Shown here: one piece after another, positions 624-19,829 of the stretch | How positions within the stretch are numbered: position 1 is the first letter of the stretch | Layout: every line of letters begins with the position of its first letter | From: Bdellovibrionales bacterium | GTDB taxonomy: Bacteria; Bdellovibrionota; Bdellovibrionia; Bdellovibrionales; UBA1609 | DNA: 24,785 bases | Direction of reading: 5' to 3' | Assembly (NCBI GenBank): GCA_050246815.1 | Contig: JBFWVI010000043.1 | Span: 1 to 24,785 of the forward strand | The notes under the pieces: model-generated | Databases searched by the model: none | Told to the model about the DNA's origin: nothing | The model's input: the letters and a program-made list of their open reading frames with translations, nothing else | Made by a program: the position numbers and the translations under genes

Positions 624-2854
624 CGGCCGACGAAGAAGTCTTCGCCCTGAAGAACTTTGCCGCGCCGAACTTTTTAACCGCCACACCCACCGGTGGCTTG
701 GGCAGCGCCTGCGCCAAGTGGCTGGGCGAACGCTTGCGTGCGAAATTGGAAGAGGTTCCGGATTGGCTGAATGCAAGACCCGTGGCTTTGGGCTCATGGG
801 CGCGGGGCGAACTTTGCCCCAAATCTGATATCGATGTGATTTTTTGTGGATCTGAAGAGATCGTACAAAAAGTTGTGGGCCAAATTCAGGCGCGGGGTTT
901 GCGTTTGCGCTCGCGAGTGCCTCAAGATTTAAATGATTGGACCATTGGGGTTGAGCCCTTTGATGTCTTAGCCATCTTGCATGGCCAAACCTTTGATCCC
1001 TTGGCCGCCGCGCAGTTGCAGGTTCAACAAGATCTGATTCGAAGCCGTGGCGAAAAATTCGCCCGTTCTTTGCTAGTTGCGATAGAAAATGAAAAAGTCG
1101 CCCGCAGTTTGCGTTTTGATTCGGTGGCCAACTACCTGGAGCCCAATATCAAATATGGGCCTGGTGGTTTGCGTGATCTTGAGCAGGCGCTGAGTGTGCG
1201 CCGTTTGTTTGAAGATCGTTTCGCGATGACAGATGCGGCTGCCGATGTATTTCGCCACTATAAGTTTTTGTGGCTGGCCATACGCCAGCGCCTTCATTTG
1301 ATGGGTGGCGGCGATCTGTTGAGTGGCCCCGAGCAACCTGATTTGGCAAAGGCCTTCGGCTTCACTGAGCTTAAAGATTTCATGCGTGAATTTCAGCGTG
1401 GGATTTCAGAGGTGAACTTTTACGCCAATTGGGTGATCGCGAAGGCTCGTAAAACCAGGTGGTCAAAACCACGTCGATTGAAAACTTTCAACGATGCTTT
1501 GAAGACGCTCGAACGCGATCCCTCGGTGTTGACTCAAGCCGAGGTGCGATTCGCGTTGCCGCATTTAAAAGGCCCGGCTGATTTAGCCACAGTTTTTAAA
1601 GTGACACAAAAAGAGGCCTGGTTTGGGTCCTTGTTTGATTCGCATTTGCTAGACCACTGGCTTAAGGACATCACAAGACTACGTGGGCATGTGCAGCATG
1701 ACCACTATCATCGTTTCACCGCGGACGCTCATTTGCTTCAGGCCATCAAACAGGTGGTACGGGCTCGCCGGCGCCCAAAGTTTTTGGGGAGGCTGGCCTT
1801 TTGGGCCAAAGCATTCACCTTGCTCGATTGGCAAATACTGCTGTGGACGGCTTTATTTCATGACTTGGCCAAGGGTAAAGGCGGCGATCATTCGCAAAAA
1901 GGCCGCGAGCTGGCTGAAACCGAAATGCGTCGCTTGGACTTAAGTGAAGACCTGATTCATGAAGTGAAGTGGATGGTGCAAAACCATTTGCTTCTCTCGA
2001 CGGCGGCATTTCGCATGAATGTGCAAGAGCCCGCCACTTGGCGGCATCTCCACGGCGCTGGTGCGGTCGGTGCCCGACTTTCTAGACTGGCCGTTTTCAC
2101 CGCCCTGGATATTTGTGCGACTAACCCCGAAGCCTGGAATGATTGGAAGGAGCGCTTGCTGGCCGACCTTTTGACCGCTATGCAGTCAGCTGAGGCGGCG
2201 GGATTTATGAATCTTTTGGCCAAAGCCACAAGTGCCTCGGCCAAAGAAGTGGCGGCGCAAATTGATCCGGCCGTGGCTCAAGCGGTACCGACCAAAAAGT
2301 TGTTGGCCGACCTGGCGCGCGCGGGTAAGTCCAAAAAAGATCTTTCGCCTTTGGCCTTGCGCAATCGGCGCGGCGAAATGTGGGTTCGCTTCCACTCTTC
2401 ACAGGATCGACCGGGTTTGTTTTTGCAGTATGTGGCTAAGTTGTTTGCTCTAGGATGTTCCATTCAGCAGTCGTCCGTGCGCACTTTGCCCAAGGTCGGT
2501 GTTTACGATTGGTTTCAGGTGCGTACGACCAAACGTCCGGCACAGATTCTGAAACAACTCGATTTGATCAAGGATTGGACCGAAGTTGAGCCGCCGCAAG
2601 TGCGTCTCAACCAGATCGAAGTGATTTCAGAAGGCGATGGCGAAATAATTTTAAGCTTTCGGGGTAAAGATCAAAAAGGTGTCTTATTGGCGACAGCCAA
2701 AGCGCTTTTTGAATTGGGGTTCACGGTACGCTGGGCGAAGGTGATTACCTGGGGTTCGCAAATCGATGATATTTTCTGTGTGCAGAGAGAGGGTGGTGAT
2801 TTGTCCGCTGCACTTGAAAGTATGCGCACAAGCTTCAACGTCAAAAAAGACTAG
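602..2854 (+). CDS. glnD: Bifunctional PII uridylyltransferase/uridylyl-removing enzyme (GlnD-like), compact 750 aa form
   Basis: Nucleotidyltransferase motif ALGSWARGELCPKSDIDV, then EPNIKYGPGGLRDL. HD domain QHDHYHRFTADAH...LFHDLAKGKGGDHS. Two C-terminal ACT-like motifs (DRPGLF, DQKGVL). Overlaps the end of mutS by 22 nt. Confidence 0.88.
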   Translation: MATKSFLTADEEVFALKNFAAPNFLTATPTGGLGSACAKWLGERLRAKLEEVPDWLNARPVALGSWARGELCPKSDIDVIFCGSEEIVQKVVGQIQARGLRLRSRVPQDLNDWTIGVEPFDVLAILHGQTFDPLAAAQLQVQQDLIRSRGEKFARSLLVAIENEKVARSLRFDSVANYLEPNIKYGPGGLRDLEQALSVRRLFEDRFAMTDAAADVFRHYKFLWLAIRQRLHLMGGGDLLSGPEQPDLAKAFGFTELKDFMREFQRGISEVNFYANWVIAKARKTRWSKPRRLKTFNDALKTLERDPSVLTQAEVRFALPHLKGPADLATVFKVTQKEAWFGSLFDSHLLDHWLKDITRLRGHVQHDHYHRFTADAHLLQAIKQVVRARRRPKFLGRLAFWAKAFTLLDWQILLWTALFHDLAKGKGGDHSQKGRELAETEMRRLDLSEDLIHEVKWMVQNHLLLSTAAFRMNVQEPATWRHLHGAGAVGARLSRLAVFTALDICATNPEAWNDWKERLLADLLTAMQSAEAAGFMNLLAKATSASAKEVAAQIDPAVAQAVPTKKLLADLARAGKSKKDLSPLALRNRRGEMWVRFHSSQDRPGLFLQYVAKLFALGCSIQQSSVRTLPKVGVYDWFQVRTTKRPAQILKQLDLIKDWTEVEPPQVRLNQIEVISEGDGEIILSFRGKDQKGVLLATAKALFELGFTVRWAKVITWGSQIDDIFCVQREGGDLSAALESMRTSFNVKKD

Positions 2855-3069
2855 AGGCGGCTATTTATTTTTGAGATGGACTGTAAAGATGCTTTCGCTT
2901 TCATACCAGTTGATCACGACTGTGGTCGAGGCCGGTTAATTTTTGGTCTGAGAACAGCAGGTTGTTTGCGTAACATAAGTTTTGCAAGAGTTCCGTAGCC
3001 TTATCTAGAACGGCAAACCGGTTAGTAATGCAGCAAAATTATTGTCGAGTCGAGGCCCAACATTTTGTG

Positions 3070-3097
3070 TTGCGGTTGGATAAAAGTTCTGTAGACT
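3070..3097 (+). promoter_or_regulatory. Putative sigma70-type promoter for the LuxR-family gene
   Basis: TTGCGG-N16-TAGACT, about 75 nt upstream of ATG 3172. Confidence 0.35.
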
Positions 3098-3171
3098 TTA
3101 ATACAGGTGGTCGAGCCGACCAATGATCTAGATGGAATGGATCAAATAACCAAATGGGGGAGGGAGCAAGG

Positions 3172-3552
3172 ATGCTCAGAGATGTACTAATTCAAAAAGG
3201 TTTGTCCAGTCGTGAGGCGGAAGTCGCTGAACTGGTGACCAAAGGCCTGTCCAACAAGGAAGTTGCCAACCAGTTGTTCGTGACTGAAAAAACAGTCAAA
3301 TTTCACCTGACCAACATCTATAAAAAGATGAACGTCAAGTCGCGCGCTCAGCTGATCGTGTGGTGCTTACCTCACCTCGGTTTTGTGGAAAAAGAAGAGC
3401 GTCAACAAAACCAAGAGACCATTATCGCCGGAGCCGCCGCAAGCGCTCAGACGATTCCTGTTGGCAACGCCAACAACATGGCTCAAGGCATCGCTATTCC
3501 CGGCCTGAATCGCGGTCAAGGTAACGGCGGTAACGACATCGGCACTTTCTAG
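3172..3552 (+). CDS. Stand-alone LuxR/GerE-family HTH transcriptional regulator with a low-complexity C-terminal tail
   Basis: LSSREAEVAELVTKGLSNKEVANQLFVTEKTVKFHLTNIYKKMNVKSRAQL is a classic LuxR HTH, with no receiver domain. ATG 3172 follows a GGAGGGAG RBS, so it is preferred over 3154. Confidence 0.92.
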   Translation: MLRDVLIQKGLSSREAEVAELVTKGLSNKEVANQLFVTEKTVKFHLTNIYKKMNVKSRAQLIVWCLPHLGFVEKEERQQNQETIIAGAAASAQTIPVGNANNMAQGIAIPGLNRGQGNGGNDIGTF

Positions 3553-3634
3553 TCTGTTGAAGAAAAAGTCAGTTGCGGCTCTCTTATGCTGCGAACCAAG
3601 ACTTTTAAGCCCATTCGTGAAGTGAGCATAATAG

Positions 3635-3670
3635 AAGCTCACTTGCAACACGAGTGGGTTTTGTTTTTTT
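3635..3670 (+). terminator. Intrinsic terminator-like hairpin, part of a possible attenuator
   Basis: AAGCTCACTTG-CAACA-CGAGTGGGTTT stem (3 G:U pairs) followed by TGTTTTTTT. Confidence 0.65.
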
Positions 3671-3683
3671 AAGGGGTTATAAA

Positions 3684-4163
3684 ATGAAGCCAATACCAGT
3701 CAAAGATTCGATTACCACCATGACCGAACTGGTTTTGCCTCAGCACACCAACGCGCTCGGCACTGTGTTTGGGGGCGTGATCATGTCTTGGATCGACATT
3801 TGCGCGGCTATTGCAGGATCACGTCATACCTCAAGACAAGTGGTGACCGCCAGTATTGATGCCCTGAACTTCGTGGCGCCGGTGTACAAAGGATGGATCG
3901 TGAGCCTACATGCGGCTGTCAACTATGTTGGACGAACATCGATGGAGATTGGGGTGCGAGTCGACGCCGAAACTCCGATTGAGCGCAAAAAGGTTCATAC
4001 CGCCTCGGCCTATCTGACTTTTGTGGCGTTGGATCAGCATGGAAGGCCGATTGAAATACCACCCGTGTTACCTGAAACGCCTGAACAAAAACGACGCTAT
4101 GAAGCGGCCCAGCTGCGCCGCACCGCACGGTTGGAAATGATCAATAAACTGGGCAAAGGTTAA
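3684..4163 (+). CDS. Acyl-CoA thioesterase (HotDog fold, YciA-like)
   Basis: VLPQHTNALGTVFGGVIMSWIDICAAIA, VVTASID, VNYVGRTSMEIGVRV, AYLTFVALD. ATG 3684 follows an AAGGGG RBS. Confidence 0.93.
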   Translation: MKPIPVKDSITTMTELVLPQHTNALGTVFGGVIMSWIDICAAIAGSRHTSRQVVTASIDALNFVAPVYKGWIVSLHAAVNYVGRTSMEIGVRVDAETPIERKKVHTASAYLTFVALDQHGRPIEIPPVLPETPEQKRRYEAAQLRRTARLEMINKLGKG

Positions 4164-4838: not shown

Positions 4839-5879
4839 TTATTGGAACTGAATCGCCCACCACTGTTGAATGGCCGCGCACAGCCCTGAGTTGATGCCGC
4901 CGTTGCACCCATTGAAGGGATGTTCGCTGCCGCGGGCGTTGGTGATCAGATTGTTGGTGCTTGCAGTACCGTTGTTGGCGGGGGTCGGGATGATCAAGTT
5001 GGTGAAGGCCAAGTCGATATTCATGGTGTGGCAGTTGTTGCACTGAGAATTGATCGTCGGTAAAATATTGGTGTTGAAATAGTTATTGCCCGCAACGGTC
5101 CTAACGTAGGCACCGTAATTTAAAGGTGTTTCGGGGCTTAAATTGCTGGCCACCGCATCACCTAAATACATATAAAGCTGGTGCGTGCGATTGTCGATGT
5201 ACTGCGAAGGAATTTGGAACGAATAGTAATTGCCGCTGTAGGCGCCAACATCCACGATATTGGCCAAGACGTTGCCTAGCGCCACTCCAGATCCCACCGG
5301 GCCATCCATATAAAAATACACTCGCACCTTGGCCGCCGGGTTGGTCGGGTTTAAAGCCCAGCCGGTGATGCGGCCCGAAGGGGCGACTTGGTTCAGCTGA
5401 CCAGTCAGTCCTGCCACCATCGAGGGGTATTCCTTTTGGTGCCATTGAATCAAAAGACCACAAACTGGGTCGTTCAGGCTTAAGCCAAACGAGCAAAAGT
5501 TACCCCCGGTGTGGGGAATCATATCACTGACTTTGCGGATTAAATTGTTGTTGGTGATACTTGTTCCGCCTGCGGCAAGAAGAAGCTTTACCTGTGAGTA
5601 ATTGTAAATCGCCAGCGTTGCGGGTGTGCCTGTGACAAAGCGAGGTTCAGCATGGCAGGCGTTGCATCGGGCTTGAAAGGCGACACGCACGTTTTCAACG
5701 AAAAATTTTTCAGCTAAGGGCAAGCTGTTAGAGCCATCCGGGTCGTTGCCTGGGTCGCCCCCACTTGAGCTTGCGTTTGTCGCGCTTTCAACTTCGTAAG
5801 GCTGACAGTTTTGAAAGACCAACGCCACCATCATGATTGACGCCAGCAGAGCGAAAAACTTCATATTTCGTTTAGTCAT
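4839..5879 (-). CDS. Diheme c-type cytochrome lipoprotein
   Basis: Signal peptide ending VFQNC (Cys25). Two CxxCH motifs: CNACH (5666-5652) and CNNCH (5042-5028). Central beta-rich segment (GRITGWALNP...VRVYFYMDGP). Confidence 0.82.
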   Translation of the reverse strand: MTKRNMKFFALLASIMMVALVFQNCQPYEVESATNASSSGGDPGNDPDGSNSLPLAEKFFVENVRVAFQARCNACHAEPRFVTGTPATLAIYNYSQVKLLLAAGGTSITNNNLIRKVSDMIPHTGGNFCSFGLSLNDPVCGLLIQWHQKEYPSMVAGLTGQLNQVAPSGRITGWALNPTNPAAKVRVYFYMDGPVGSGVALGNVLANIVDVGAYSGNYYSFQIPSQYIDNRTHQLYMYLGDAVASNLSPETPLNYGAYVRTVAGNNYFNTNILPTINSQCNNCHTMNIDLAFTNLIIPTPANNGTASTNNLITNARGSEHPFNGCNGGINSGLCAAIQQWWAIQFQ

Positions 5880-5900
5880 ATAAACCCCAACCCAACCCTC

Positions 5901-5909
5901 ATTTTATCA
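5901..5909 (-). promoter_or_regulatory. Possible internal extended -10 promoter for the last operon gene
   Basis: Minus strand reads TGaTAAAAT about 21 nt upstream of ATG 5879. The -35 region is weak. Confidence 0.3.
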
Positions 5910-5944
5910 TTGGCCAACGGGGAACGCATGGAAAGGCTTGGGGA

Positions 5945-5959
5945 TTCTCAAATTGAGAC
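5945..5959. promoter_or_regulatory. Palindromic putative operator/UAS (TTCTCA-AAT-TGAGAC)
   Basis: Imperfect inverted repeat. Similar sites occur at 12478-12492 and 15398-15412. Confidence 0.45.
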
Positions 5960-5972
5960 ATTAAGACGGGGG

Positions 5973-7319
5973 CTAGAATTCGCGGTAAATTTGGCTCTCG
6001 AAAAAATTTGCAAAAAAGTTGAACACCGAGCTGATGGCTTCTTGTTCGGGAATGCCAAATTCGTCGGTGAGTACTTTCGCAATGGTGCGGATGCTCTTAT
6101 GCCCGTCCACCTGGCTGATCACCAAATTATAGATTTCAGAGCGAGTGCGAAAGGCCAGTGTCTCGTTGCTGACCGGCACAGGTGTGTCCATGTTTTGCAG
6201 CCAGTTGGGCATGTACTCAAAATGGGCCGGGCGTTTGCTTTGAGATTTTTTTTGGGCGGAAAAGGTCCAAACCATGTCCATACGGCCGACGGCATCATGG
6301 GGCGAGATCAGATAGGGGATGTCGGCGGTCTTCCAATGTGTGATTTCAAAACCCGCCTCCTTCAAGATTTCTTGCACTTCGTCGGGTCGATACACCTGGG
6401 CCAGGTTCAATTTATCAAAACCTAACTGGCCAATGTTGACCCACACCCCATCCATAGGCAAAAGACTGTTGATGAGTTTGGCGGTCTCGCGAAAATCGCG
6501 AGGAATAATATCGATAAACCAGCTGGTGACAACCGTGTCCAGCTGTCCTTGGCGCAAATTCAAATTTTGCGCATCACAAAAGGCCATCTCAAAACCCGGT
6601 GCGGTTTTGCCCTTTAACTGCAGCTGATGTTCGACGTAAACGTCCTTGGAAGTTTTAGGAACCTGTGGAAACTCCACCATGGCAAAGGACTCGCCGTCCA
6701 AAAGCCGCTTGGCGGGGATCAGCAAAAAGGGATTGATGTCCACGGCCAATGAAAGTTCGGGTTTTAATTGGTTGTGAATCATCAGGGGCAGGCCACAGGC
6801 TCCAGCCCCCAAGAAGGCAATACGTTTTTGCTTTGTCAGATGGGGCAAAAGCAAATCTGCATAATTTTTGATCTGCTCTTGTCCCCAAACCCAATCACGA
6901 AAGAGCGTGGATTGATAGGCCAATGCAGCCTGCTGGCGCGGCACGCGCTCAAGGCTCAAATCTTCTTGGGTGGTATTGGGTTCGGCGATAAGCCCGAGAA
7001 TCTTTTTAGTGCGCTGCAGAAATTTTGCGTACCCTTCGCTCAAACGCTTCAAGCGCGAAATCGTGGACGGAAGCAAAGCCGGTTGCCGCAAGGCTTGCTG
7101 ACACTGATCTTGTTTTTGTAGCGAAAAATCAAAAACGTCTTGAATCTTTTTTTGCCAATGAGCCAACGCGCTTCCGGGATGACGGTAGAGCCAGACAATA
7201 CCATTGAAACTTGGGTATTCACTTTGAGAAGAGCGGTAAATGCCGTCCTCAACCGTTAAGGGCTCGCCCGATTTTGGACAGAGCAAAATAGGATGGGTCT
7301 TTTTGGTGTCGGCAGCCAG
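5973..7319 (-). CDS. Class I SAM-dependent methyltransferase, carnosine N-methyltransferase (N2227)-like, with Trm112-like N-terminus and PqqD-like C-terminus
   Basis: SAM motif IAFLGAGACGL and LAVDINP. N2227-like motifs LFRDW and DTVVTSWFIDI...GVWVNIGQL. N-terminus ILLCPKSGEPL...YPSFNGIVWL. C-terminus SQVDGHKSIRTIAKVLTDEFGIPEQEAISSVFNFF. Start is either TTG 7286 or CTG 7319 (GAGGT RBS 5 nt upstream). Confidence 0.8.
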   Translation of the reverse strand: MAADTKKTHPILLCPKSGEPLTVEDGIYRSSQSEYPSFNGIVWLYRHPGSALAHWQKKIQDVFDFSLQKQDQCQQALRQPALLPSTISRLKRLSEGYAKFLQRTKKILGLIAEPNTTQEDLSLERVPRQQAALAYQSTLFRDWVWGQEQIKNYADLLLPHLTKQKRIAFLGAGACGLPLMIHNQLKPELSLAVDINPFLLIPAKRLLDGESFAMVEFPQVPKTSKDVYVEHQLQLKGKTAPGFEMAFCDAQNLNLRQGQLDTVVTSWFIDIIPRDFRETAKLINSLLPMDGVWVNIGQLGFDKLNLAQVYRPDEVQEILKEAGFEITHWKTADIPYLISPHDAVGRMDMVWTFSAQKKSQSKRPAHFEYMPNWLQNMDTPVPVSNETLAFRTRSEIYNLVISQVDGHKSIRTIAKVLTDEFGIPEQEAISSVFNFFANFFESQIYREF

Positions 7320-7346
7320 TTGAGACCTCGTCGTTGCAAAAGCCTT

Positions 7347-8549
7347 TTAACGTGCGATCGCGGCATCGTTCAGCGGAGCCCCATCCAAGATCCAGTCGCG
7401 AATCACATCGCGAGAGGTCGCGGGTTCGATCAAGCCCGTGGGTGGCATTGGCGAACCGGGATCGTTGATCCGTTGATAGATGAAATTATCCGATAAAGTG
7501 AACGGCGTGACGAGTGTTTTGTCTGAATTTGCGGTCCTGCCCACGACGTTGTTATAGTTGTTGGGCCCCAAATTGTATCCGCCGGGCGGGGTGGGGTTAT
7601 CTGGACTGTGACAACTCACGCAGTTGGTGGCGAAAAAGCCGGCTCCATTGGTCAAAGCCGTGTAAGTGGTCGGTACAAAGTTGATTTCAGAGGCACCCAA
7701 AACACCCACCGCCAATTGAATGCGTAAGGGCTCCGTAATGGGTGAATCAACAGGGCGCGGAAAAAAATTGGCGCCTGGGGCTAGGCGGCGCGAGTTGTTA
7801 TTGGCCACGTTGGGAATGTAGCGATCCACATATAAATACGTGTCACCCGCGATTTTAACACCATTCACATAAACGGCGACGCCATTGATATAAGCCGAAC
7901 TGGCACCGGCATTAATAAAACGCAAATTTTCAATCTGATAAGCCGGCGGGCCGCCGGCGATGGTCACGCCGCGCACGGTGACAACCAGCTGTCCGCCTGC
8001 GTACGAGTTGGCTGCATCGACAAATTCGGTTCCGGTGTTCCAGGTCAGGTTTACGGTTTGGTTCAAGTTCGGGTTCGCATTTTTAGCGATTAACATTTTG
8101 GTTGGCGTAACTGTCGTTGGCACGTCAGGCACATCGCCATTGGCAGTTTGGCAAGCAGCGTATTGAGCTTTGGTGACGTTCCAAGATTGATTGATGCCAG
8201 CAACTGCGGCATTGTGTTGCGTGCCGGTGTAGGGCGGCTTGTGGGTGCTTGTCGCAAATTCAGAAATTTTATCAGCGGTTTTGCGTGAAAAGGCAGAAAA
8301 TGAGAGTGAGGCATTGTTAGAAGCAAAAAAACCGCTGCCCGGACCGACCGCATGGCAGTTGGCACAATTGGATTTTAGGAAGGGGTAAAAGCTTCTTTGA
8401 AAACCATCCACCAACACGCTTTGGCACGCTGAAAGACTCGAGAAATCCCCACTGCCCGAGGTGTGCACCGGGGAACAGTTATTGAAAAGAAGCGCAACTG
8501 CTGCGGCCGCTGTCACTAAGCTGAAAGTGGCCTTTAATTTTAACCCCAT
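7347..8549 (-). CDS. Diheme c-type cytochrome lipoprotein with a C-terminal planctomycete-cytochrome-like domain
   Basis: GGAGG RBS. Signal ending LFNNC (Cys25). CANCH (8366-8352) and CVSCH (7622-7608). C-terminal SPMPP...IRDWILDGA resembles PSCyt1-type domains. Confidence 0.83.
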   Translation of the reverse strand: MGLKLKATFSLVTAAAAVALLFNNCSPVHTSGSGDFSSLSACQSVLVDGFQRSFYPFLKSNCANCHAVGPGSGFFASNNASLSFSAFSRKTADKISEFATSTHKPPYTGTQHNAAVAGINQSWNVTKAQYAACQTANGDVPDVPTTVTPTKMLIAKNANPNLNQTVNLTWNTGTEFVDAANSYAGGQLVVTVRGVTIAGGPPAYQIENLRFINAGASSAYINGVAVYVNGVKIAGDTYLYVDRYIPNVANNNSRRLAPGANFFPRPVDSPITEPLRIQLAVGVLGASEINFVPTTYTALTNGAGFFATNCVSCHSPDNPTPPGGYNLGPNNYNNVVGRTANSDKTLVTPFTLSDNFIYQRINDPGSPMPPTGLIEPATSRDVIRDWILDGAPLNDAAIAR

Positions 8550-8605
8550 GACCCTTGTCCTCCACCCTTTTTATCCCGAAAACGTTCTTCCTATCGAGTG
8601 AACCT

Positions 8606-10180
8606 TTAAGCGATCTTCCTCATGAAGGCCTTTTGTGCGGCTGTGTAAGTTTTTAAGCCCGCCATTGTGCGATCAAATAGAGCTTCTCCGCCGCCACTCA
8701 GCATGCAGTAGTTATAGAATACGGCGGCTCCGCCATCATCCATGTTGGTGGTGAAGTTGCCGTTGCCGTTATCAACGTTGCCGCGGGCATTCAAGCCCCC
8801 GATTTGTGCGGGTAGTGCACTGACTGTCGCAACCGGTGCAGCTGGGCTGTAAGCGATAAAATGGTGCGCACCGTGACAGTTGCCGCTGTTGTCATCGTTG
8901 TTAAAGCTGCTGTTTGGCTGGCCACCGTCGCAAACCACCGCGCCGTTGGTGGTGATCTGAATGAACACTTTACTGTTCAAAAGACGAGCGGACTCAAGCA
9001 TGCGGCCTACACACAAACCGATGTTAAAGGCACCGGTTTCTTGGTCTTGGCGCGAGTTGTTGCCGCCCCCGTGAATGTCATAGCCACCGACGTTGATCGC
9101 GGCACCCGCGGCGTTACCGTTGAGCACGTTGACCACCATGGCCGAAATCGCGTCGTTGTTAAAATTGCCTGTGACAACGCCGTTGGTTTGGGCAAAGTTG
9201 TTCCAGATCGCGGCCATGCCGGCAATGTCGCGAGGATTGATGGCGGCGCCGCCACCTTCTAAGTTTTTAATATTCTGATCGGTTGCGCACTGAGCAAGCT
9301 TAGCCATTTGCGGACCGCCGTTTAGGCCTGTGATACTTGCCGCTTGAGCAGCATTCAGGCTTTGAATCGCTCGCCCCAAGCGAAGTTGTTGGGCCGTGGT
9401 CAACCGAGCCAAAGCGCCCGTGGGCTGAATGGCATTTAACACGCTATTGATATTGTTCACTTGCAACGGGCGCACCGAAGTGGTGATACCAAAAGTTGGC
9501 AAGCCGCTAATTCCTGTGTCAGCCTCGCCACCTTGGCGTAGGTAATTCAGTTTCGCACCCGCACGGCCGGCACGAGAAATCAGGCCCAATATACTTGAGC
9601 GTTGATCGCTATCGCCGTTGTCTCTGACGGGAACAGTGACCAGGGCGGCATTCGACAAGGTTGTCGCCTGCGCACTGGCCAGCAGGCCGCGCAAGAAGCC
9701 TTGGTTGGCGCCGTTGTCGAATAATTCGGCCCGATTGGCGAAAACGTTGTTCACAAATGCTGGTGCCGTGCCCAAGCCTAGACGGGTGTAGCTGTCTAAG
9801 CGATTTCCGTTCGTCATACGAGGTGTGACGGCAGACAAGGGTTGATAACCACCTGACAAGTGCAGGTTAATGAAGGGCGCCGGGCCAACACCAGCCGGTG
9901 GCGGCGTCGGGCATTCTCCCATCACTTGGGCGTAGGCCTCTTCACTCAAAGTACCTAAAATTGTGGCGATCGATGGCCCAAGCATATAGCCAACGGTTGA
10001 ATACACACCCGCCTCTAAGAGGGTGCGGCGAGTGATGGGCTTTCTTTCGTGTGGGTGATTGGCCAGGTGTTTTTGCAGTTGTTGCTTATGCAGTGCCTGA
10101 TCCGCTTCCAGATCTTTCTGGCGCTGTTTTCTCTCAAGAGCCTCTTCAAGTCTCTTCAGTCTGCTAATTTTGTTACCCAT
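8606..10180 (-). CDS. Tat-exported DUF1501-like protein
   Basis: Twin-arginine motif ITRRTLLE, a hydrophobic stretch and AYA cleavage site. FINLHLSGG and GGYDIH resemble the DUF1501 LxGG and GGWDTH motifs. ATG 10180 lies 8 nt after a GAGGGG RBS, so it is preferred over GTG 10189. Confidence 0.7.
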   Translation of the reverse strand: MGNKISRLKRLEEALERKQRQKDLEADQALHKQQLQKHLANHPHERKPITRRTLLEAGVYSTVGYMLGPSIATILGTLSEEAYAQVMGECPTPPPAGVGPAPFINLHLSGGYQPLSAVTPRMTNGNRLDSYTRLGLGTAPAFVNNVFANRAELFDNGANQGFLRGLLASAQATTLSNAALVTVPVRDNGDSDQRSSILGLISRAGRAGAKLNYLRQGGEADTGISGLPTFGITTSVRPLQVNNINSVLNAIQPTGALARLTTAQQLRLGRAIQSLNAAQAASITGLNGGPQMAKLAQCATDQNIKNLEGGGAAINPRDIAGMAAIWNNFAQTNGVVTGNFNNDAISAMVVNVLNGNAAGAAINVGGYDIHGGGNNSRQDQETGAFNIGLCVGRMLESARLLNSKVFIQITTNGAVVCDGGQPNSSFNNDDNSGNCHGAHHFIAYSPAAPVATVSALPAQIGGLNARGNVDNGNGNFTTNMDDGGAAVFYNYCMLSGGGEALFDRTMAGLKTYTAAQKAFMRKIA

Positions 10181-10219
10181 AAAACCCACCCCTCAAAAAT
10201 TTCAAGACCAATTAAAAAA

Positions 10220-10918
10220 CTACTGCTGCACGCCGTTCAAGGCCGAGGCCATGGCCGTGCATAGGAACAAAGCCGCTTCTTGTGTTTTATTGGCATTGTT
10301 CTGGTTGTCCAAAGCCATCGATTCATTCACGGCTGTGGTCAAAATTTGCCGTTCTTCCGCGGATTCATTGCGCTGCCAGATTGAGCGTGCAATGCGGTTG
10401 ATGGCCACACCTAAATTGGCATCATTCACGTTGTTGGCAGGGGCCGCAGCCAAGTTGATGCTGTTGAACAGCACTTTGTTGGCGGCATTGTTCGCGTTGC
10501 TTTCAAATGCGATACGGTCCAGGCACACCTGGCCGGCCAAAGTTGAAAACGCGAGTGCCAGAGGCGAACCCAGAGTTCCGGGTTGACCCGAATCAGAAAA
10601 GTTGCCCGACTGGCGGTTAAACTCATCGCGCGATTGGGTCGTCGGAGTCACCACTTGCAGAGCTGAAAACAGCGTGGCGTAAGTTTGACCCAAGATCGGT
10701 ACTCCCACAGTGGGGATGCCCGATGTTGCCGGTGGAATTTCAATCGTCGAAGGCAAGTCAAAACCTGCGCTAGAGTTGTCCAGGCTGTTGCCTTGCAAGC
10801 CCGTGCTGCAGGCAAAACCAAAAGTGCTCACGACAACAGCCAAGGTCACAATGCTGGCCAGTATTTTTAAGCTACTTAAGCCTTTATTCATCATCTGAAG
10901 TCTCGATTGTGTTTTCAT
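10220..10918 (-). CDS. Hypothetical lipoprotein of the cytochrome operon
   Basis: GAGGG RBS. Hydrophobic segment ending FGFAC. Two further Cys (GQVCLD, LFLCTAM). Helical, Asn/Ala-rich, no CxxCH. Confidence 0.72.
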   Translation of the reverse strand: MKTQSRLQMMNKGLSSLKILASIVTLAVVVSTFGFACSTGLQGNSLDNSSAGFDLPSTIEIPPATSGIPTVGVPILGQTYATLFSALQVVTPTTQSRDEFNRQSGNFSDSGQPGTLGSPLALAFSTLAGQVCLDRIAFESNANNAANKVLFNSINLAAAPANNVNDANLGVAINRIARSIWQRNESAEERQILTTAVNESMALDNQNNANKTQEAALFLCTAMASALNGVQQ

Positions 10919-10950
10919 AGTCTTACCCTCTATTCCTGAAGTGCCTGTTA

Positions 10951-12273
10951 CTACTGACCCGAGCAGGCGGCTGAAGTTGCGACTCTTTCAAAAAGCCAAC
11001 GTAATTTGTAATTGCCCATAGCCGGATTTTCCCAATCGCGCGCCAAAGCTCTTAAAGCTCCACCGGCTGCTTTTTCTGAAGCCGTGGGCGAGCGTCGGCA
11101 AACGTTTTCAAACACGTTTTCTGCAACACAGCGCGAGAATGCTTCTGAGCGGCTGAGCATTGTGCCGTAGGCATTCAGTCCGCGGCCCATAATCGGTGTA
11201 GTGACGGGACGGCCTTGGGCGTCGCGCCAGCCATAAAGTTCATTTAATTCAGGAGTGACGGCGTAGTTGACCCAGTTGTCGTTGGCGACCACTTGACCTT
11301 GGTTGAACTGACCTTCACCCAAACGGTTCAATTTATTAGCCACGCGAGTGGTGCCGTCATAAAGACCCGTGTTTAAATTCACCTGACCGTGTTTGACTTG
11401 GTTGTTGTCAAACTCACTGTAAGCAAAGGCCGAGCGATGTGCGTCCATATTGGAATGGCAGCCTTTGCAAGTCAGCAAGAAGGCCGAAGGATCGCCGCCC
11501 GGAGCGCGGCTGACGTCGCGGCCGACGCGGTCATCAGGCAGAGAGGTGCTCACCACTTCTTCCAAGGTATGGCAGGTTAGACGTTTCACCACTTTTTCAT
11601 AGCAGCGGCGATTGGTGCCGGCGTCGGCACAATCCGACATGAACTGACGTGTCGTCAACAGGCCTGCCGCATCCGGATGATTCACGCTGGCCTGGTTGTC
11701 GTCGACTATGGTTTGTTGGACCGAAACCAGGTTCGGGCGGATGTCCATGACAGGGTTTAAGGCCAAAGCGGCGTCCACGTCGTTATAGTGATTGTTTGAT
11801 CGGGCGATATCGTTGACCGGATTAATGCGTAGATTTGGAATATTTTCGAAGCGATAGACCGAATTGGTGGTCAATAGACCACGTGCATCCAAATCATCTT
11901 TGGTGAAACCGATCACGGTTGCAGTTAAATCATTCATCGGAACGCGGTAAACGCCAGCGCGAGTTGACATTTTCGAGCCCAGCAGGCGAACAGTTTGCGA
12001 ATAAAAGGTCGGCTGGTTCGTGGCGATACGGGCTGCGCCCATTTGATCACCCGCATTGATCAAGGCTTCCATATCCTTAATCACTTGCGAATCGATTGGT
12101 GCTTTTTGACCGGTCAATCTGTTGTAAAGAAAGGCTGCGCGGGTCCGTGAGGCAGATATGACGCCGTTGGCTTCATAAGCAACTTGGGCTGTTGCAGGAG
12201 TTGCAACTCCTAACAACACAACGCTAAGACAAATCTTCATGACTGTGCGTTTTAATTGCTTGTCCTGTCCCAT
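10951..12273 (-). CDS. Exported monoheme c-type cytochrome-like protein (reminiscent of DUF1588/DUF1585-type proteins)
   Basis: GGGGGA RBS. Sec signal ending PATA-Q. AAGLLTTR, GTNRR and TCKGCHSNMD (CxxCH at 11469-11455). C-terminal AFSRCVAENVF...YKLRWLFERVA. Confidence 0.75.
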   Translation of the reverse strand: MGQDKQLKRTVMKICLSVVLLGVATPATAQVAYEANGVISASRTRAAFLYNRLTGQKAPIDSQVIKDMEALINAGDQMGAARIATNQPTFYSQTVRLLGSKMSTRAGVYRVPMNDLTATVIGFTKDDLDARGLLTTNSVYRFENIPNLRINPVNDIARSNNHYNDVDAALALNPVMDIRPNLVSVQQTIVDDNQASVNHPDAAGLLTTRQFMSDCADAGTNRRCYEKVVKRLTCHTLEEVVSTSLPDDRVGRDVSRAPGGDPSAFLLTCKGCHSNMDAHRSAFAYSEFDNNQVKHGQVNLNTGLYDGTTRVANKLNRLGEGQFNQGQVVANDNWVNYAVTPELNELYGWRDAQGRPVTTPIMGRGLNAYGTMLSRSEAFSRCVAENVFENVCRRSPTASEKAAGGALRALARDWENPAMGNYKLRWLFERVATSAACSGQ

Positions 12274-12310
12274 AAATCCCCCCAGTGACCAGATGCTTTA
12301 CAGACCATCG

Positions 12311-12327
12311 TTGCATGACCCATGCCG
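12311..12327 (-). promoter_or_regulatory. sigma54 (RpoN)-type -24/-12 promoter of the cytochrome operon
   Basis: Minus strand CGGCATGGGTCATGCAA fits GG-N10-GC (consensus TGGCACGnnnnTTGCW). It lies 37 nt upstream of ATG 12273. Confidence 0.65.
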
Positions 12328-12477
12328 TCCAGTGACGAAATACGGCCACCTGGTCGCGCACCTTCTAGACAGTGCTCAATCATTGTACTGGGTTTGAACA
12401 GGAAATCGACTTTCGGCCAGTCTTGCGGCTCAAGCTGCGACTGAGTTACATAACTATATGTAAATGGAGTTTATTTT

Positions 12478-15511: not shown

Positions 15512-16144
15512 ATGATGTTACGATCTAAGCGAGGTTTCTCGCTGGTAGAATTAATGATCGTGGTCGCCATTATTGGCATCTTGGCCGCGATTGCAATTCC
15601 AAACTTTGTGCGATTTCAATCTAAAGCTCGCCAGGCTGAAGCCCGTGCGGACTTAAGTGCGATCTATGCCGCACAAAAAGCTTTCAATGCCGAGTGGCAA
15701 CAGTTCTTCGGCGATTTCAACGAAATCGGCTATCGCCCAGAAGGTGCGTTTCGTTATGAACACGGCTTTGGCGCAGCTGGTATCGTCAGCCCAGCCAGCT
15801 ACACGGGCGCAATCGGTGCCGCAGCAGCGGCCATGGCTTTCAACACCCTGGGCAACTTAGGCCCTGTTGGTATGCAGCAGCCTTGCGGAGCGAACATTTT
15901 GCCGGCCACCATTACCGCCAACGTCTGCGGTGTGGAACGCACTTACGCGGGAGCTTCGATGTTGCCAGCTTTGGCAGGCAGCGTGACCGCGGCCAACGCA
16001 TTCATCGCCACAGCGGCGGGCAACATCGACAACGATGCCGCCTTTGATGCCTGGTCGATCGATCAAAACAAAGCGATCTCAGGCCCAAGCAACGTCATGG
16101 CTGCTCCGGTGGCCATCGGTAACGGCGGCGACTTAGATAACTAA
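15512..16144 (+). CDS. pilA: Type IVa major pilin
   Basis: Class III signal KRG/FSLVELMIVVAIIGILAAIAIPNF with E5. KARQAEA...L.AIY.AQKAF is typical of deltaproteobacterial PilA. C-terminal AxGNIDND...DxW. Strong GAGGGG RBS. Confidence 0.9.
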   Translation: MMLRSKRGFSLVELMIVVAIIGILAAIAIPNFVRFQSKARQAEARADLSAIYAAQKAFNAEWQQFFGDFNEIGYRPEGAFRYEHGFGAAGIVSPASYTGAIGAAAAAMAFNTLGNLGPVGMQQPCGANILPATITANVCGVERTYAGASMLPALAGSVTAANAFIATAAGNIDNDAAFDAWSIDQNKAISGPSNVMAAPVAIGNGGDLDN

Positions 16145-16184
16145 GTCTTTAGGCGTCGTTTAAATATTCAAATGGTTTTTTTTA

Positions 16185-16213
16185 AAGAGTCTTCCCCATG
16201 TGGGAGGACTCTT
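16185..16213 (+). terminator. Stem-loop after pilA (partial terminator or mRNA stabiliser)
   Basis: AAGAGTCTTCCC-CATGT-GGGAGGACTCTT, a 12 bp stem with one G:U pair and only a weak downstream U tract. Confidence 0.6.
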
Positions 16214-16227
16214 GTATTCTTGGGGGC

Positions 16228-16935
16228 ATGCTCAACCTGGTTTTTTTCATCTTGTCCATATTGGGTGTCGTCCTGACCTCCATCAGCAAAGAAGTCAAAG
16301 CGCCTAAATTCGATCCCGTGCTTTTACCGCCTCAGCAAATCGAACACTTCACGTTTAGCTATGACGAAATAATGGCCGATCTGCTTTGGCTGAGGGCAAT
16401 TCAATCCCTGGACTATTGCGGGAAAACCTTTATCACCGATGAACAGGTCAAGCTGGGCACAAATGTGTTTCGCATTTGCCAGGAAGGCTGGGTGTACCAG
16501 ATGCTGGACGCCGCCACCCGCATTACGCCTCGTTACCGCATTATTTATTCGCGCGGAGCGGTCGCTTTAAGCGTTTTGGTCAATGATCGTCAGGGTGCTT
16601 TACAGCTGTTTGAACGGGGCTCCAAAGTTTACCCGCAGGATTGGGTGATTCGTTATTATTCCGGCTTTCACCGCCTGATGGAAATGAACGATCCCGCCGG
16701 AGCCGCCGAAGATATGCGTATGGCGGGTCTTAATGGCGCCCCCAATTGGCTGACATTACTTGCAGCTCGTCTTTACAATGAGGCCGGTCAAGCCGAATTT
16801 GGATTGCGGGCTTTGAGTGATTTTTATGGCCAGGAGCCTTTTGGAAAATGGCCTGCCCGTGCGCAGGAGCGTTGGCGCGAACTTGAAACAAAGCTGGGTC
16901 GCAAAGTCACGCCACCCACTCCCACCCATAATTAA
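16228..16935 (+). CDS. Pilin-associated membrane-anchored TPR-like protein (Myxococcus PilG-like)
   Basis: N-terminal TM helix, ADLLWLRAIQ motif and helical repeats. Lies immediately after pilA. ATG 16228 is preferred because ATG 16198 is inside the hairpin loop. Confidence 0.7.
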   Translation: MLNLVFFILSILGVVLTSISKEVKAPKFDPVLLPPQQIEHFTFSYDEIMADLLWLRAIQSLDYCGKTFITDEQVKLGTNVFRICQEGWVYQMLDAATRITPRYRIIYSRGAVALSVLVNDRQGALQLFERGSKVYPQDWVIRYYSGFHRLMEMNDPAGAAEDMRMAGLNGAPNWLTLLAARLYNEAGQAEFGLRALSDFYGQEPFGKWPARAQERWRELETKLGRKVTPPTPTHN

Positions 16936-16946
16936 GGGGAAAACTC

Positions 16947-19829
16947 ATGTCGATTCGCTTGATGCAGATCCTGGTTTTGTTGTCGGGGTTTGCCGGCCTG
17001 CTTTATCAGGTGGTGTGGCAAAAGTACTTGGCGATTTTTTTGGGCAGTGACGCGCCGGCAACGGCTTTGATTTTGGCCGGTTTTTTTCTTTATATGTCTT
17101 TGGGCTACCAATTTTTCGGGCGCTTTATTCAGCGCCTGACCATCTCGCGCATTAAAATATACGCCTATTTAGAACTCGGCATTGGCGTTTGTGGCTTGCT
17201 GTCGCCGGATTTTTTCAGTCTTCTTCGCAATTATTACTGGGCCAGCAGCTGGCTGCAGTACCCCCTGTTGTCGGGCGCGATTCTGACATCGCTGTGTGTG
17301 GGATTGCCGGCTTTTCTAATGGGTGGAACGATTCCGGTTTTAGCCGAAGGATTGTCGCGCAGTTTTGAGCAAAGCCATCAAGTCCACGCCCGTGTGTACA
17401 GCCTCAACACCCTGGGCGCGTTTTTGGGGGCCCTGGTCACGACTTTTTATCTGATCGAGAAATTTGGTTTGCCCATTTGTCTGATGATGGGGGCCGTGAT
17501 CAACATCGCGGTATTTTTATTCTCGTGGCTGGTGGCGCGTTCGCAACCCGAAAAATTCACACCACCACAGCAAGACATGGGGGGGCGGGATTTACTCAAG
17601 CGCGATCAGTGGGTCATCCTGGGATTGTCTTTGCTGAGTGGTTTTTACGTATTTAGTTTTGAAAACCTGATTATTCGTATGGCCGGTGTGGCCTTGGGAA
17701 GTTCGGTTTACACATACGGGTTGGTGGTGGCCGCTTTTATTTTGGCCATCGCGGTGGGCAGCCATTTGAGCGAACGACTGGACAGCAGTCGGCGTCCGGC
17801 TATTTTAGCGCTGGTGCAAGGCGCTTTGTTGGTCACAAGTGTCGCACTTTATTTCTTGATTCCTTATTGGCCCGATTTATTTTTGCGCATCCGCTTTATT
17901 TTCAATCCAGTCACGATTAATTTTGAGCTCTACCAACAAGTGGTTTGGCTGGTCATGAGTCTTTTGCTGCTTGTGCCGGTTGCGTTGATGGGTATGAATT
18001 TACCGCTCTTGTTCGGGTATTTGCGGCGTAGCCAATACAATATTTCAGGAATCGTCGGTCGGCTGTATTCAATTAACTGTTTAGGGGCTGTTCTTGGTGC
18101 AACGATCGGCGGATATTTCGCGTTTCATTATTTGTCGTCGGCCATGATTTTTCGTTTGGATTTATTTTTGGTTTTGACGGGCCTTGTTCTTTTTATCTGG
18201 TTGGCACGCTTGAAACCACAATGGTATGCCTTGCCCGTTTTGGGGCTTTCGGTTTTACTTTTACCCGATTGGCACCTGAGGCAATTTTTGCCCGCACGGG
18301 CGTACATCGCCAAACCCATCGCGGTGGAAGAGACCTCATTCGAAAATTTTCGTAAAGAGATACTGGATTTAAAATTGGATGTGCAATTTCACCGTGAAGA
18401 TCCCAACTTGAATGTTGCCGTGGTGGGCATTGAGTCCATCCCCAATAACGACGGCGTCGTGCAAAAGGACGTTGGTCTTTATTTGAACGGCAAAGCCGAT
18501 GCGATTTACCCGGCCGATGAAACCGTGCGTGCGATGTTGCCGCTATTTGCGGCCAGCCTGGCGCCCAAGGCCGAACGCGCCGCCATCGTCGGGCTGGGGG
18601 CGGGTTTAAGCTTGGGCATCAGTGCCAATCTGCAAACCATGAAGCGCGTGGATGTGGTTGAAATTTCACCGGCCGTGGTCGAGGCCTTGCCCTATTTTGA
18701 AAAGTACATTCCAGGACTTAAGCAGAATCAGGATAAAACACGCTTACTGGTCGGGGACGCCTTTCAGGTGCTCAGGCGACAGGCCGGCCAATACGACTTT
18801 ATTTTGTGCGAACCCACTAACCTTTGGATCATGGGCGTCGACAAGCTTTACACCGCCGATTTTTTTGAGTTGGTGGCGGGGCAACTAGCGCCAGAAGGCC
18901 TTTTTGCGCTTTGGATTCCGATGTCTACGTTAAGCCACGAAAGTTTTTCTTTGATTCTAACCACTTTAAAGACGGTCTTCCCCTATGTGACCATTTGGAA
19001 TTCAGGGTTTGGCACAGTGTCAGCAATTTCTTCGAAAGCTCCGCTGAAAATGCCTGCCTTAGATGTTTTGCGCGCCCGTTTTCAAGACAACAAACCCTTT
19101 TTCGACCGTTTGAAAATCACTCAGCCCGAAACCTTATTGGCGTTGCAAATCGCCACGCCTTGGGTTTTGAACGGTTTGAGTCAGCGTGACCCGCGCGTGC
19201 ATACCGTTGAATATCCGATGCTGACTTATTCTGCGGCGCGCACCTTGTTCACCAAGATCGGAACGAACTTCGACGTATTTTTAAGCGAGCGGGTGCTGCG
19301 CGCAGGTCCCATCCAAGACCCGCTCAATCAATTTGTGGCCGACGGGGTGAAGTTCTCGAAAGAGGTTCTGGCCGACGTGGTTTCAATTTATCAGCGTTAT
19401 GGTCGCATCAGCTCGGGGTTGTTTGAATTAAAATGGCTTTACATGGCCGACGAGGCTGGGGTTTCACAAGCCAAAAATAGTCGATTTCAAGCCGTGACTT
19501 CGCTTCGTTCGGTGATCGAAAACAAACCTTTGCCACCAGTCACACCCGAGCCTTCAAACATGTCCAAGGTCGAAAGACTTTTGCGGGCCTATCAGCGTGC
19601 CCGACTACTGGGTTTTCAGGCCTCACCAGCCATTGTGATGAAAAACTATGATTGGGACTGCCAGAGCTTCTTGTGCGCTCGCTTGGCTCTGGGGCTTCTA
19701 AGTGAATTTTTGCCCCTTTCTGAGGTCAAATCGTTTCGTGAAAAAGATCTCAACAAGCCCTCGGACCGACAAGTTATTTTTCAAGCGCTGAAAGCCTGGG
19801 CCGGCTCTGAGGACGCACAAACAAAATAG
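16947..19829 (+). CDS. Fused multi-pass membrane (MFS-like)/spermidine-synthase-like SAM-binding protein
   Basis: SGFAGLLYQVVW and repeated LMG...P.L and Y..N.LGA..G motifs across about 12-13 TM helices. These are followed by LYLNGKADA, AIVGLGAGLS, VDVVEISPAV, GDA and YDFILCEP. Confidence 0.88.
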   Translation: MSIRLMQILVLLSGFAGLLYQVVWQKYLAIFLGSDAPATALILAGFFLYMSLGYQFFGRFIQRLTISRIKIYAYLELGIGVCGLLSPDFFSLLRNYYWASSWLQYPLLSGAILTSLCVGLPAFLMGGTIPVLAEGLSRSFEQSHQVHARVYSLNTLGAFLGALVTTFYLIEKFGLPICLMMGAVINIAVFLFSWLVARSQPEKFTPPQQDMGGRDLLKRDQWVILGLSLLSGFYVFSFENLIIRMAGVALGSSVYTYGLVVAAFILAIAVGSHLSERLDSSRRPAILALVQGALLVTSVALYFLIPYWPDLFLRIRFIFNPVTINFELYQQVVWLVMSLLLLVPVALMGMNLPLLFGYLRRSQYNISGIVGRLYSINCLGAVLGATIGGYFAFHYLSSAMIFRLDLFLVLTGLVLFIWLARLKPQWYALPVLGLSVLLLPDWHLRQFLPARAYIAKPIAVEETSFENFRKEILDLKLDVQFHREDPNLNVAVVGIESIPNNDGVVQKDVGLYLNGKADAIYPADETVRAMLPLFAASLAPKAERAAIVGLGAGLSLGISANLQTMKRVDVVEISPAVVEALPYFEKYIPGLKQNQDKTRLLVGDAFQVLRRQAGQYDFILCEPTNLWIMGVDKLYTADFFELVAGQLAPEGLFALWIPMSTLSHESFSLILTTLKTVFPYVTIWNSGFGTVSAISSKAPLKMPALDVLRARFQDNKPFFDRLKITQPETLLALQIATPWVLNGLSQRDPRVHTVEYPMLTYSAARTLFTKIGTNFDVFLSERVLRAGPIQDPLNQFVADGVKFSKEVLADVVSIYQRYGRISSGLFELKWLYMADEAGVSQAKNSRFQAVTSLRSVIENKPLPPVTPEPSNMSKVERLLRAYQRARLLGFQASPAIVMKNYDWDCQSFLCARLALGLLSEFLPLSEVKSFREKDLNKPSDRQVIFQALKAWAGSEDAQTK

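Follow-up and report, generated by a model that had tools for sequence, protein, structure and literature searches.

Modules that combine PSCyt-type cytochromes with DUF1501 proteins have been flagged as abundant and of unknown function in Planctomycetes-Verrucomicrobia-Chlamydiae (PVC) bacteria since at least 2012 (Kamneva et al. 2012, PMC3542564; He et al. 2017, PMC5615132). In these modules DUF1501 (PF07394) proteins are found with PSCyt1, PSCyt2 and PSD1, and both four-gene versions and LamG add-ons were described there (PMC3542564, PMC5615132). A second kind of module joins DUF1552 (HXXSHH, PF07586) to DUF1592/DUF1588/DUF1585 proteins, and a further relevant locus, Bd2532-Bd2529 of Bdellovibrio bacteriovorus HD100, is annotated as hypothetical. 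Here, we describe a related locus at positions 4839..12327 (minus strand) of a 24,785-nt stretch of DNA from a Bdellovibrionales bacterium (contig JBFWVI010000043.1, assembly GCA_050246815.1), which as a whole is called the window below. The genes of this locus, labelled g1–g6 in the order of transcription, encode a monohaem cytochrome c (g1), a haem-free lipoprotein (g2), a protein with a twin-arginine translocation (Tat) leader (g3), a dihaem lipoprotein (g4), a methyltransferase (g5) and a second dihaem lipoprotein (g6). The module is real, widespread and uncharacterized, and g5 is its most informative part, as it names a testable residue and modification. The literature search returned no functional study of the module, with subscription papers and bioRxiv supplements lying outside its reach.

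The six co-oriented open reading frames (ORFs) encode proteins of 440, 232, 527, 400, 437 and 346 aa (from g1 to g6) and are separated by gaps of 32, 30, 56, 60 and 93 nt, in agreement with an earlier annotation of the window (the original prediction), which had given six co-oriented genes with gaps of about 27-93 nt (30-93 nt as measured here). The five CxxCH motifs that it had listed were also found (g1 C269; g4 C62 and C310; g6 C72 and C280), and the richness in asparagine was confirmed for the five exported proteins (g1-g4 and g6, 8-11% Asn vs. 3.7% in the methyltransferase g5). Each of g1, g2, g4 and g6 begins with an N-terminal hydrophobic stretch, and a lipobox-like cysteine is present in g2 (C37), g4 (C25) and g6 (C25). 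All six genes are single-copy in the genome, as judged by tblastn. The idea that they make up one six-gene unit had to be abandoned, as the six-gene order was seen in no other fetched locus and g6 homologues occurred in only two others (L043 and L068; phmmer, roughly 100 loci searched).

What recurs is the four-gene block g1-g2-g3-g4. The g3 Tat gene was detected in 86 of the 301 sampled genomes of the phylum with a single-sequence search and in 127 of them with a 58-sequence profile, and the Tat family comprises 1,022 clusters at 50% identity (E<=1e-10). Among the 138 fetched loci whose Tat ORF was full-length (three locus sets taken together, in which related loci are not independent), g1, g2 and g3 were adjacent and co-oriented, with g2 directly between the other two, in 126, and were followed by a CxxCH protein, giving the core order, in 118; among the 20 exceptions are several that seem to stem from contig ends, from errors of ORF calling or from fusion of g2 to a cytochrome. 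The core block was also present in metagenome loci beyond the 138, there with g2 fused to the dihaem protein. Named records related to the Tat gene belong to Bdellovibrio and Bdellovibrionales, so that the family was assigned to the predatory phylum Bdellovibrionota; the nearest Atlas clusters are placed in Pseudomonadota and Myxococcota. In this gene-neighborhood survey, g1-g4 came together as a core, and the conserved operon is, as far as gene order and homology indicate, made up of these four genes, with g5 as an optional and g6 as a rare add-on. It is probable that the g1-g4 proteins form one envelope complex.

The resemblance to the PVC modules lies in a Tat protein of DUF1501-like predicted structure that adjoins a cytochrome with weak likeness to the PSD/PSCyt types, and the Atlas feature neighbors carry PSCyt2, PSCyt3 and PSD2. 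Several features set the two apart. Neither g3 nor the five homologues scanned matched PF07394, so that membership of g3 in DUF1501 by profile was rejected (this profile had no match in the genome of the window, and the control matched in 1 of 14), and g1 matches PSD2 and PSCyt2 only below the cut-off. Moreover, the core described here is present mostly in one to few copies per genome and has a haem-free lipoprotein between g1 and g3, and the available parts of the PVC descriptions do not mention a methyltransferase (PMC3542564, PMC5615132). The DUF1552 modules likewise pair a Tat protein with a monohaem PSD protein; their C-terminal PSD2-like part recurs in g1, and g5 homologues adjoin such modules in three genomes. 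In contrast to those modules, g3 lacks HxxSHH and aligned to a DUF1552 protein only at the leader, and g1 has no PSCyt3/PSD4 match. Assignment of g3 to DUF1552 was therefore rejected, as there was no match to PF07586, one invariant histidine only, and an hhalign probability of 1.3%. The original prediction of an uncharacterized envelope cytochrome system akin to PSCyt/DUF1501 modules is thus upheld by weak profile matches and by Atlas fold and feature neighbors, and the system is, on these comparisons, a divergent branch of the function-unknown PSCyt/PSD and DUF1501 modules.

The g3 gene (8606..10189, minus strand; DUF1501-like, orthologue Bd2530) encodes a protein whose twin-arginine motif, T-R-R at positions 53-55, predicts export by the Tat pathway. 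In 58 sequences R54, R55, G113, G114, D193, D371, H373 and G416 are invariant, D432 is kept in 57 and D415 in 52 (Asn in the window protein), and H373 is the sole invariant histidine, with no second conserved one. A model of g3 (predicted local distance difference test, pLDDT, only 68.8) gave no Foldseek match at E<=0.001, and all 50 rows of a fold search belonged to the alkaline phosphatase/sulfatase superfamily (best Z 10.4, root-mean-square deviation (rmsd) 4.3 Å, 242 aligned residues). The Atlas model reached TM values of 0.56-0.64 to DUF1501-carrying clusters, which is under the Atlas bar for family naming. Of the Tat DUF1501-like protein originally proposed, the leader and the DUF1501-like predicted fold stand and the profile membership does not. 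The database name of the family, 'general secretion pathway protein GspF', was rejected as well, since g3 shows no hydrophobic peak above 1.6, a soluble alpha/beta fold and no match to the GspF profile.

When its residues are matched to the canonical ligands by motif order, g3 apparently retains some of the metal site of alkaline phosphatases (D193, D371, H373, D415/N and D432), whereas the Asp that usually ends the first strand and the His ligands farther along appear to be gone; apart from this partial ligand set, the fixed linkage to c-type cytochromes also distinguishes it from the superfamily. The fold-search rows comprise sulfatases, phosphodiesterases, phosphoethanolamine/phosphoglycerol transferases and phosphatases, and they raise the question whether g3 is a working hydrolase or transferase of this superfamily, whose substrates would be phosphate, sulfate or envelope polymers from prey or from the cell itself, with the cytochromes forming or regulating the active site and g5 still methylating the metal-binding histidine. 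Frequent sulfatase genes in the neighborhood of PSCyt genes (PMC5615132), a sulfatase-modifying-factor-like domain fused to the gene after g3 at locus L085, and an attack-phase expression that would fit a role in prey contact all agree with such an enzyme. We nevertheless consider it unlikely, given that identity of g3 to those enzymes is 4-12% at an rmsd above 4 Å, that the first strand ends in an invariant Gly-Gly and a single histidine is invariant, unlike the usual metal set (with residues mapped by motif order), and that a hydrolase leaves the fixed linkage to at least three haems unexplained.

The g5 gene (5973..7286, minus strand) is the optional, cytoplasmic member of the locus and encodes a CARNMT1-like S-adenosyl methionine (SAM)-dependent methyltransferase with neither an N-terminal hydrophobic stretch nor an export signal. 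The window protein scores 26.6 bits against PF07942, 0.4 bit short of the cut-off of 27, and four homologues lie above it (34.5-61.3 bits). In the PDB, the g5 profile fits carnosine N-methyltransferase best (5yf0, E 7.5e-16), and it shares with that enzyme the motifs RDW, GxGxGRL, T-x-x-x-ID and GPL, and CARNMT1 N1-methylates metal-binding histidines in proteins (PMC10546975). Unlike CARNMT1, g5 is bacterial, some of its homologues bear an extra Trm112-like N-terminus and PqqD-like C-terminus, and its predicted target is the D-x-H-G motif of an exported protein rather than a zinc finger. We predict that g5 is a CARNMT1-type histidine N-methyltransferase.

That the methyltransferase belongs to the system, as originally proposed, is borne out by its distribution. 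Homologues of g5 were found in 30 of the 301 genomes, 28 of which are Tat-positive compared with 127 of 301 overall, and in 19 of the 30 no more than about 8 kb separates it from the Tat gene, with the order and orientation of the two variable (both hand counts). In the metagenomes, g5 stood directly downstream of the Tat gene in 21 of the best 80 of 508 loci, and the module was present in 11 of the 30 loci of at least 9 kb. In three other genomes g5 adjoins PSCyt3/PSD4 or DUF1552 genes, and the remaining copies are in unrelated contexts. A CARNMT1-like gene was seen next to PSCyt3/PSD4 or DUF1552-type modules at L126:5143-8452, L127:9924-13217, L128:9750-11195 and L134:471-2288; the Tat-like proteins of these modules carry HxWGH or HxxSH motifs, and the CARNMT1-like enzyme may serve a wider module superfamily.

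The residue that points to the target of g5 is the glycine that follows H373 in the g3 motif D371-I-H373-G374 (9068..9079, minus strand), in which the Asp and His are invariant and the His+1 Gly covaries with g5, making the motif a predicted methylation site. In a first column scan, 17 of the 21 Tat proteins encoded alongside g5 had this Gly, compared with 1 of 44 from g5-less genomes; in later metagenome data all 20 readable motifs beside g5 read GGYDYHG (one clade), and in a hold-out set Gly occurred in 3 of 59 new loci without g5 (one of the 60 loci had no Tat ORF called). Among 163 distinct proteins of at least 400 aa the counts were 33/37 with g5 in the locus and 7/126 without it. Within Bdellovibrionota alone, His+1 was the best of 527 columns (17/20 vs. 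8/127, Matthews correlation coefficient (MCC) 0.72), the next-best g3 column (MCC 0.48) being ten residues off and the best g1 and g2 columns reaching 0.44 and 0.55. Four of the seven Gly exceptions without g5 in the locus come from genomes with g5 elsewhere, and for two of these four, G336 and G338, a targeted search confirmed it. At locus L053:11811-13270 (G241) two overlapping ORFs stand in place of one methyltransferase gene (a frameshift or an error of assembly), and the Tat protein there is still His-Gly. Other candidate signals of the methyltransferase were rejected: the residue after CxxCH and the g1 and g2 columns were weaker or absent in comparison with the g3 column, and neither the length of the Tat leader nor a leader His showed a clear pattern on inspection.

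Shared ancestry was taken into account with a FastTree phylogeny built with the motif masked and long branches flagged. The two traits change 13 and 14 times on this tree, and 11 independent pairs gave 5.6 in agreement, 0.0 in disagreement and 5.4 with no difference (median p 0.031, range 0.016-0.125), so that the tree-corrected association appears to hold weakly. Several observations count against His373 as the residue served by g5. In roughly half of the independent pairs the traits do not differ, and p reaches 0.125; three Gly cases (G033, G124 and G187) have no g5 match, four of the 37 proteins with g5 in the locus lack the Gly, and so do all eight hold-out Tat proteins with g5 elsewhere in the genome. 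In the nine closest relatives of g3 the residue is N, A, A, G, N, A, T, A and A, and of the four that apparently share a contig with a g5 homologue one has Gly. Of the metagenome loci of at least 9 kb, 19 of 30 carry g5 without the module. Most core-bearing genomes, including all 18 sampled from the close-match genus of HD100, have no g5 match, which means that the modification is not essential. The His+1 Gly rule, as read from these alignments, is a preference and not a requirement.

A different target has to be weighed here: in the same kind of redox complex, g5 could methylate a small imidazole cofactor or a histidine with which an apo-cytochrome binds haem, and the Gly signal would then reflect shared ancestry or a cofactor pocket. 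The protein targets of CARNMT1 are Cys/His metal motifs, Cx(F/Y)xH (PMC10546975), reminiscent of CxxCH; in L126-L128 the methyltransferase adjoins PSCyt3/PSD4 or DUF1552 genes whose partner proteins have no His-Gly; the PqqD-like and Trm112-like ends suggest recognition of a peptide or partner; and Gly is not kept in the nearest clade of the window. Against such a target, the residue after CxxCH in g1 or g4-like proteins does not shift with g5 status, no g1 or g2 column reaches the g3 signal, and the His-Gly signal recurs in several separate clades. In addition, cytochromes c leave the cytoplasm unfolded through Sec. Another target for g5 therefore seems rather improbable to us, and N-methylation of His373 is, in our judgment, the somewhat better bet. 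A Tat substrate such as g3 folds in the cytoplasm and is the only core protein to stay there in a folded state, so that a cytoplasmic methyltransferase can reach it; because g5 has no export signal, belongs to a family that methylates histidines, and covaries with a residue beside the only invariant histidine of g3, g5 is proposed to N-methylate His373 before Tat export.

The g1 gene (10951..12273, minus strand; orthologue Bd2532) encodes a Sec-exported monohaem c protein with CKGCH at 269-273 and a PSD2/DUF1585-like C-terminus; its homologues match PF07624 below the cut-off (E 2.6e-5 to 0.0096), and one of them matches PSCyt2 (E 0.001, also under the cut-off). The AlphaFold2 (AF2) model of g1 is confident (pLDDT 92.8), and against the PDB the best fold-search Z was 4.9 with no Foldseek match at E<=0.001, a lack of matches that does not prove a new fold; by sequence, the g1 and g3 profiles found nothing significant in the PDB. 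C269, C272, H273, D277, G219, R222 and D253 are invariant in g1, and no Met or His is invariant besides the CxxCH His (best column M383, 37/44; M68 and H162, 35/44). Since the g1 haem thus has no invariant distal Met/His in its own chain, we propose a g1-g3 pair in which D371/H373 would face this haem. The intervening g2 (10220..10918, minus strand; lipobox Cys37, orthologue Bd2531) has no Pfam or NCBIfam match and is likely the membrane anchor of the complex. The dihaem c lipoprotein g4 (7347..8549, minus strand; Cys25, CANCH and CVSCH, orthologue Bd2529) matches PF13442 and PF00034 above the cut-offs and PSCyt1 weakly (E 0.0057, below the cut-off), and a conserved P-M368-P beyond the second haem makes His/Met ligation of that haem likely. 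The other dihaem c lipoprotein, g6 (4839..5879, minus strand; Cys25, CNACH and CNNCH), is distantly like the N-terminal haem domain of g4 (weak BLAST match, E 4e-4).

According to the proposed mechanism, g1-g4 would build a lipid-anchored haem redox complex in the envelope, in which D371/H373 would be the sixth ligand of the g1 haem or part of a neighboring metal site, the g1-g3 pair would be the catalytic center anchored by g2, and g4, together with add-ons such as g6, would pass electrons to a c-type respiratory chain. Methylation of His373 might tune or protect the oxidative center, and the likely job would be the oxidation of an external or periplasmic substrate, yielding electrons for a free-swimming, prey-less cell. 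We regard this account as a whole, i.e., a g1-g4 redox complex with g5 methylating His373, as evenly poised between right and wrong.

No gene for a quinol oxidase, porin or reductase was recognized within the locus, as the original prediction had stated, but for the family this does not hold, because a gene for a CxxCH protein with a barrel-like part lies near 38 of 170 homologous loci. In comparison with Mtr/Pcc/Cyc2-type porin-cytochrome conduits, the locus itself has no barrel gene; the gene in question encodes a protein of about 390 aa with CxxCH right behind the signal peptide and a barrel-like aromatic C-terminus (e.g., L038:6042-7211 and L091:13206-14540, both on the minus strand), usually accompanied by YceI and a small cytochrome. 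Two copies are present in the genome of the window, away from the locus and beside YceI (C25:41364-42524 and C1:45291-46427). The family has no Pfam or NCBIfam match, and its layout is what we take to be Cyc2-like.

The core has an orthologous counterpart in B. bacteriovorus HD100. A cluster look-up tied the named B. bacteriovorus locus to the HD100 proteins CAE80330, CAE80329 and CAE80327/Q6MK82, and the tags Bd2532-Bd2528 were assigned from serial numbering and matching gene lengths. Bd2532-Bd2529 keep the order of g1-g4, and in the supplements of PMC3627812 they are mapped as a single transcript of four genes, which has an attack-phase start and a FliA site and is followed by Bd2528-2527 under a second FliA promoter. 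Reads per kilobase per million (RPKM) given there, with the two columns taken as attack vs. growth phase, are 721-2,677 vs. 0.7-10 for Bd2529-2532 and 721-3,966 vs. 0.7-12 when Bd2528-2527 are included. All five proteins Bd2528-2532 were detected with 5-35 unique peptides (supplement of PMC12546842), and their time courses in these data are alike, with a dip at 3-4 h and recovery at 6-7 h (r 0.62-0.95, no background computed). The Tn-seq supplements of PMC6561027 did not contain the Bd tags searched for, and no paper in the literature searched names Bd2529-2532 in its main text. The HD100 operon differs from the window locus in its FliA promoter, in the different cytochrome (Bd2528) and YceI with their own promoter that follow it, in the lack of g5 in the 18 sampled genomes of its close-match genus, and in having Ala/Ser at His+1 in the nearest homologues. 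The co-transcription assumed in the original prediction is therefore supported for the four-gene core by the published map of transcription starts in HD100; for g5 and g6 of the window locus it would follow from spacing only.

The window locus was originally described as sigma54-driven, and a weak sigma54-like -24/-12 site (GG-N10-GC) is present at 12312..12328 (minus strand), 38 nt upstream of g1, with 10 of 14 matches to the consensus; rpoN is present in the genome. Across homologous upstream regions this box was not enriched (7/62 vs. 18/226, p 0.28; 10/71 vs. 17/160, p 0.29), a post-hoc impression of its conservation in the window's own family failed in 19 further loci (2/19 vs. 1/60, p 0.14), and a de novo Gibbs motif search did no better than background (information content 9.9 vs. 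9.3-9.7). Sigma54 control as a family trait was rejected, as four tests gave no enrichment. A sigma28 -10 box (at least 7/8) was enriched upstream of homologues (20/62 vs. 11/226; 13/71 vs. 11/160; related loci are not independent), and the window contains no good one (best 5/8). Together with the FliA promoter of HD100, these results speak against sigma54 control as a general property of the system.

The FliA control ties the system to the motility and chemotaxis programme and brings up a sensing or structural apparatus of the motile phase, e.g., for redox or oxygen sensing or as a surface scaffold, with the haems as sensors. Relatives that add LamG, FG-GAP and Calx-beta domains, typical of surface binding, and a core without a quinol-oxidizing membrane subunit would suit it. 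We consider this quite unlikely, as no signalling domain or transducer recurs in the neighborhoods and the second haem of g4 resembles an electron-transfer His/Met site, and we retain the redox complex as the preferred reading.

Other features were recorded around the homologous loci and within the genome of the window. In a subgroup with longer g1 and g4, the gene ahead of g1 encodes a protein of about 560-725 aa with FG-GAP repeats (L031:1710-3617 and 11 other loci), and a divergent gene upstream of the module is weakly like hydrazine synthase alpha/TolB propellers, far below the cut-off (E ~5e-5; L272:1-1603, minus strand, and 8 other metagenome loci). In one clade the next gene after the core resembles that for lipoprotein signal peptidase II (L078:11327-12193 and 6 other loci), which fits the heavy lipoprotein load. 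An 856-residue frame with 30 CxxCH motifs at C9:18745-21312 (minus strand) of the genome, overlapping or near an 8-motif frame at C9:17343-18182 (plus strand), could encode a large multihaem cytochrome or be an artefact of repeats. In the window, the locus is flanked upstream by the housekeeping genes clpS/clpA and downstream by a convergent unknown gene, a thioesterase and a LuxR-type regulator, and neither g1 nor g5 had plasmid matches. Farther along, positions 15512-19829 (plus strand) hold genes for a type IV pilin, then for a TPR-like protein of unknown kind, then for a membrane protein of 960 aa to which a spermidine-synthase-like domain is fused. Positions 19969-22698 (plus strand), in the neighborhood of clpA/clpS and dnaJ/dnaK, encode a second Clp-like protein with a double AAA+ module, which is divergent and starts with a signal-like sequence.

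As a single-operon version that is switched on in the attack phase of a genetically tractable model, Bd2532-2529 of HD100 makes the question of module function directly testable. The covariation singles out His373, likely to be the histidine of the active site and also the target of a bacterial CARNMT1-like enzyme, a kind of enzyme-substrate pair for which the literature search found no report, and g1 adds a confident model without a clear match among solved structures. Tentatively, the system may represent a widespread, undescribed class of envelope enzymes, in which a cytochrome c of new fold and a repurposed alkaline-phosphatase-fold Tat subunit would share one haem/metal site, with a dedicated CARNMT1-type enzyme installing N-methylhistidine on the key histidine. 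Interest in methyl-histidine ligands comes from enzyme design as well as from oxidative enzymes, fungal lytic polysaccharide monooxygenases (LPMOs) among them. If the proposal is true, the module would provide a natural bacterial methyl-histidine ligand of a metal or haem with both the enzyme and the target residue named, and a bacterial enzyme that installs such a ligand would be useful as well as surprising.

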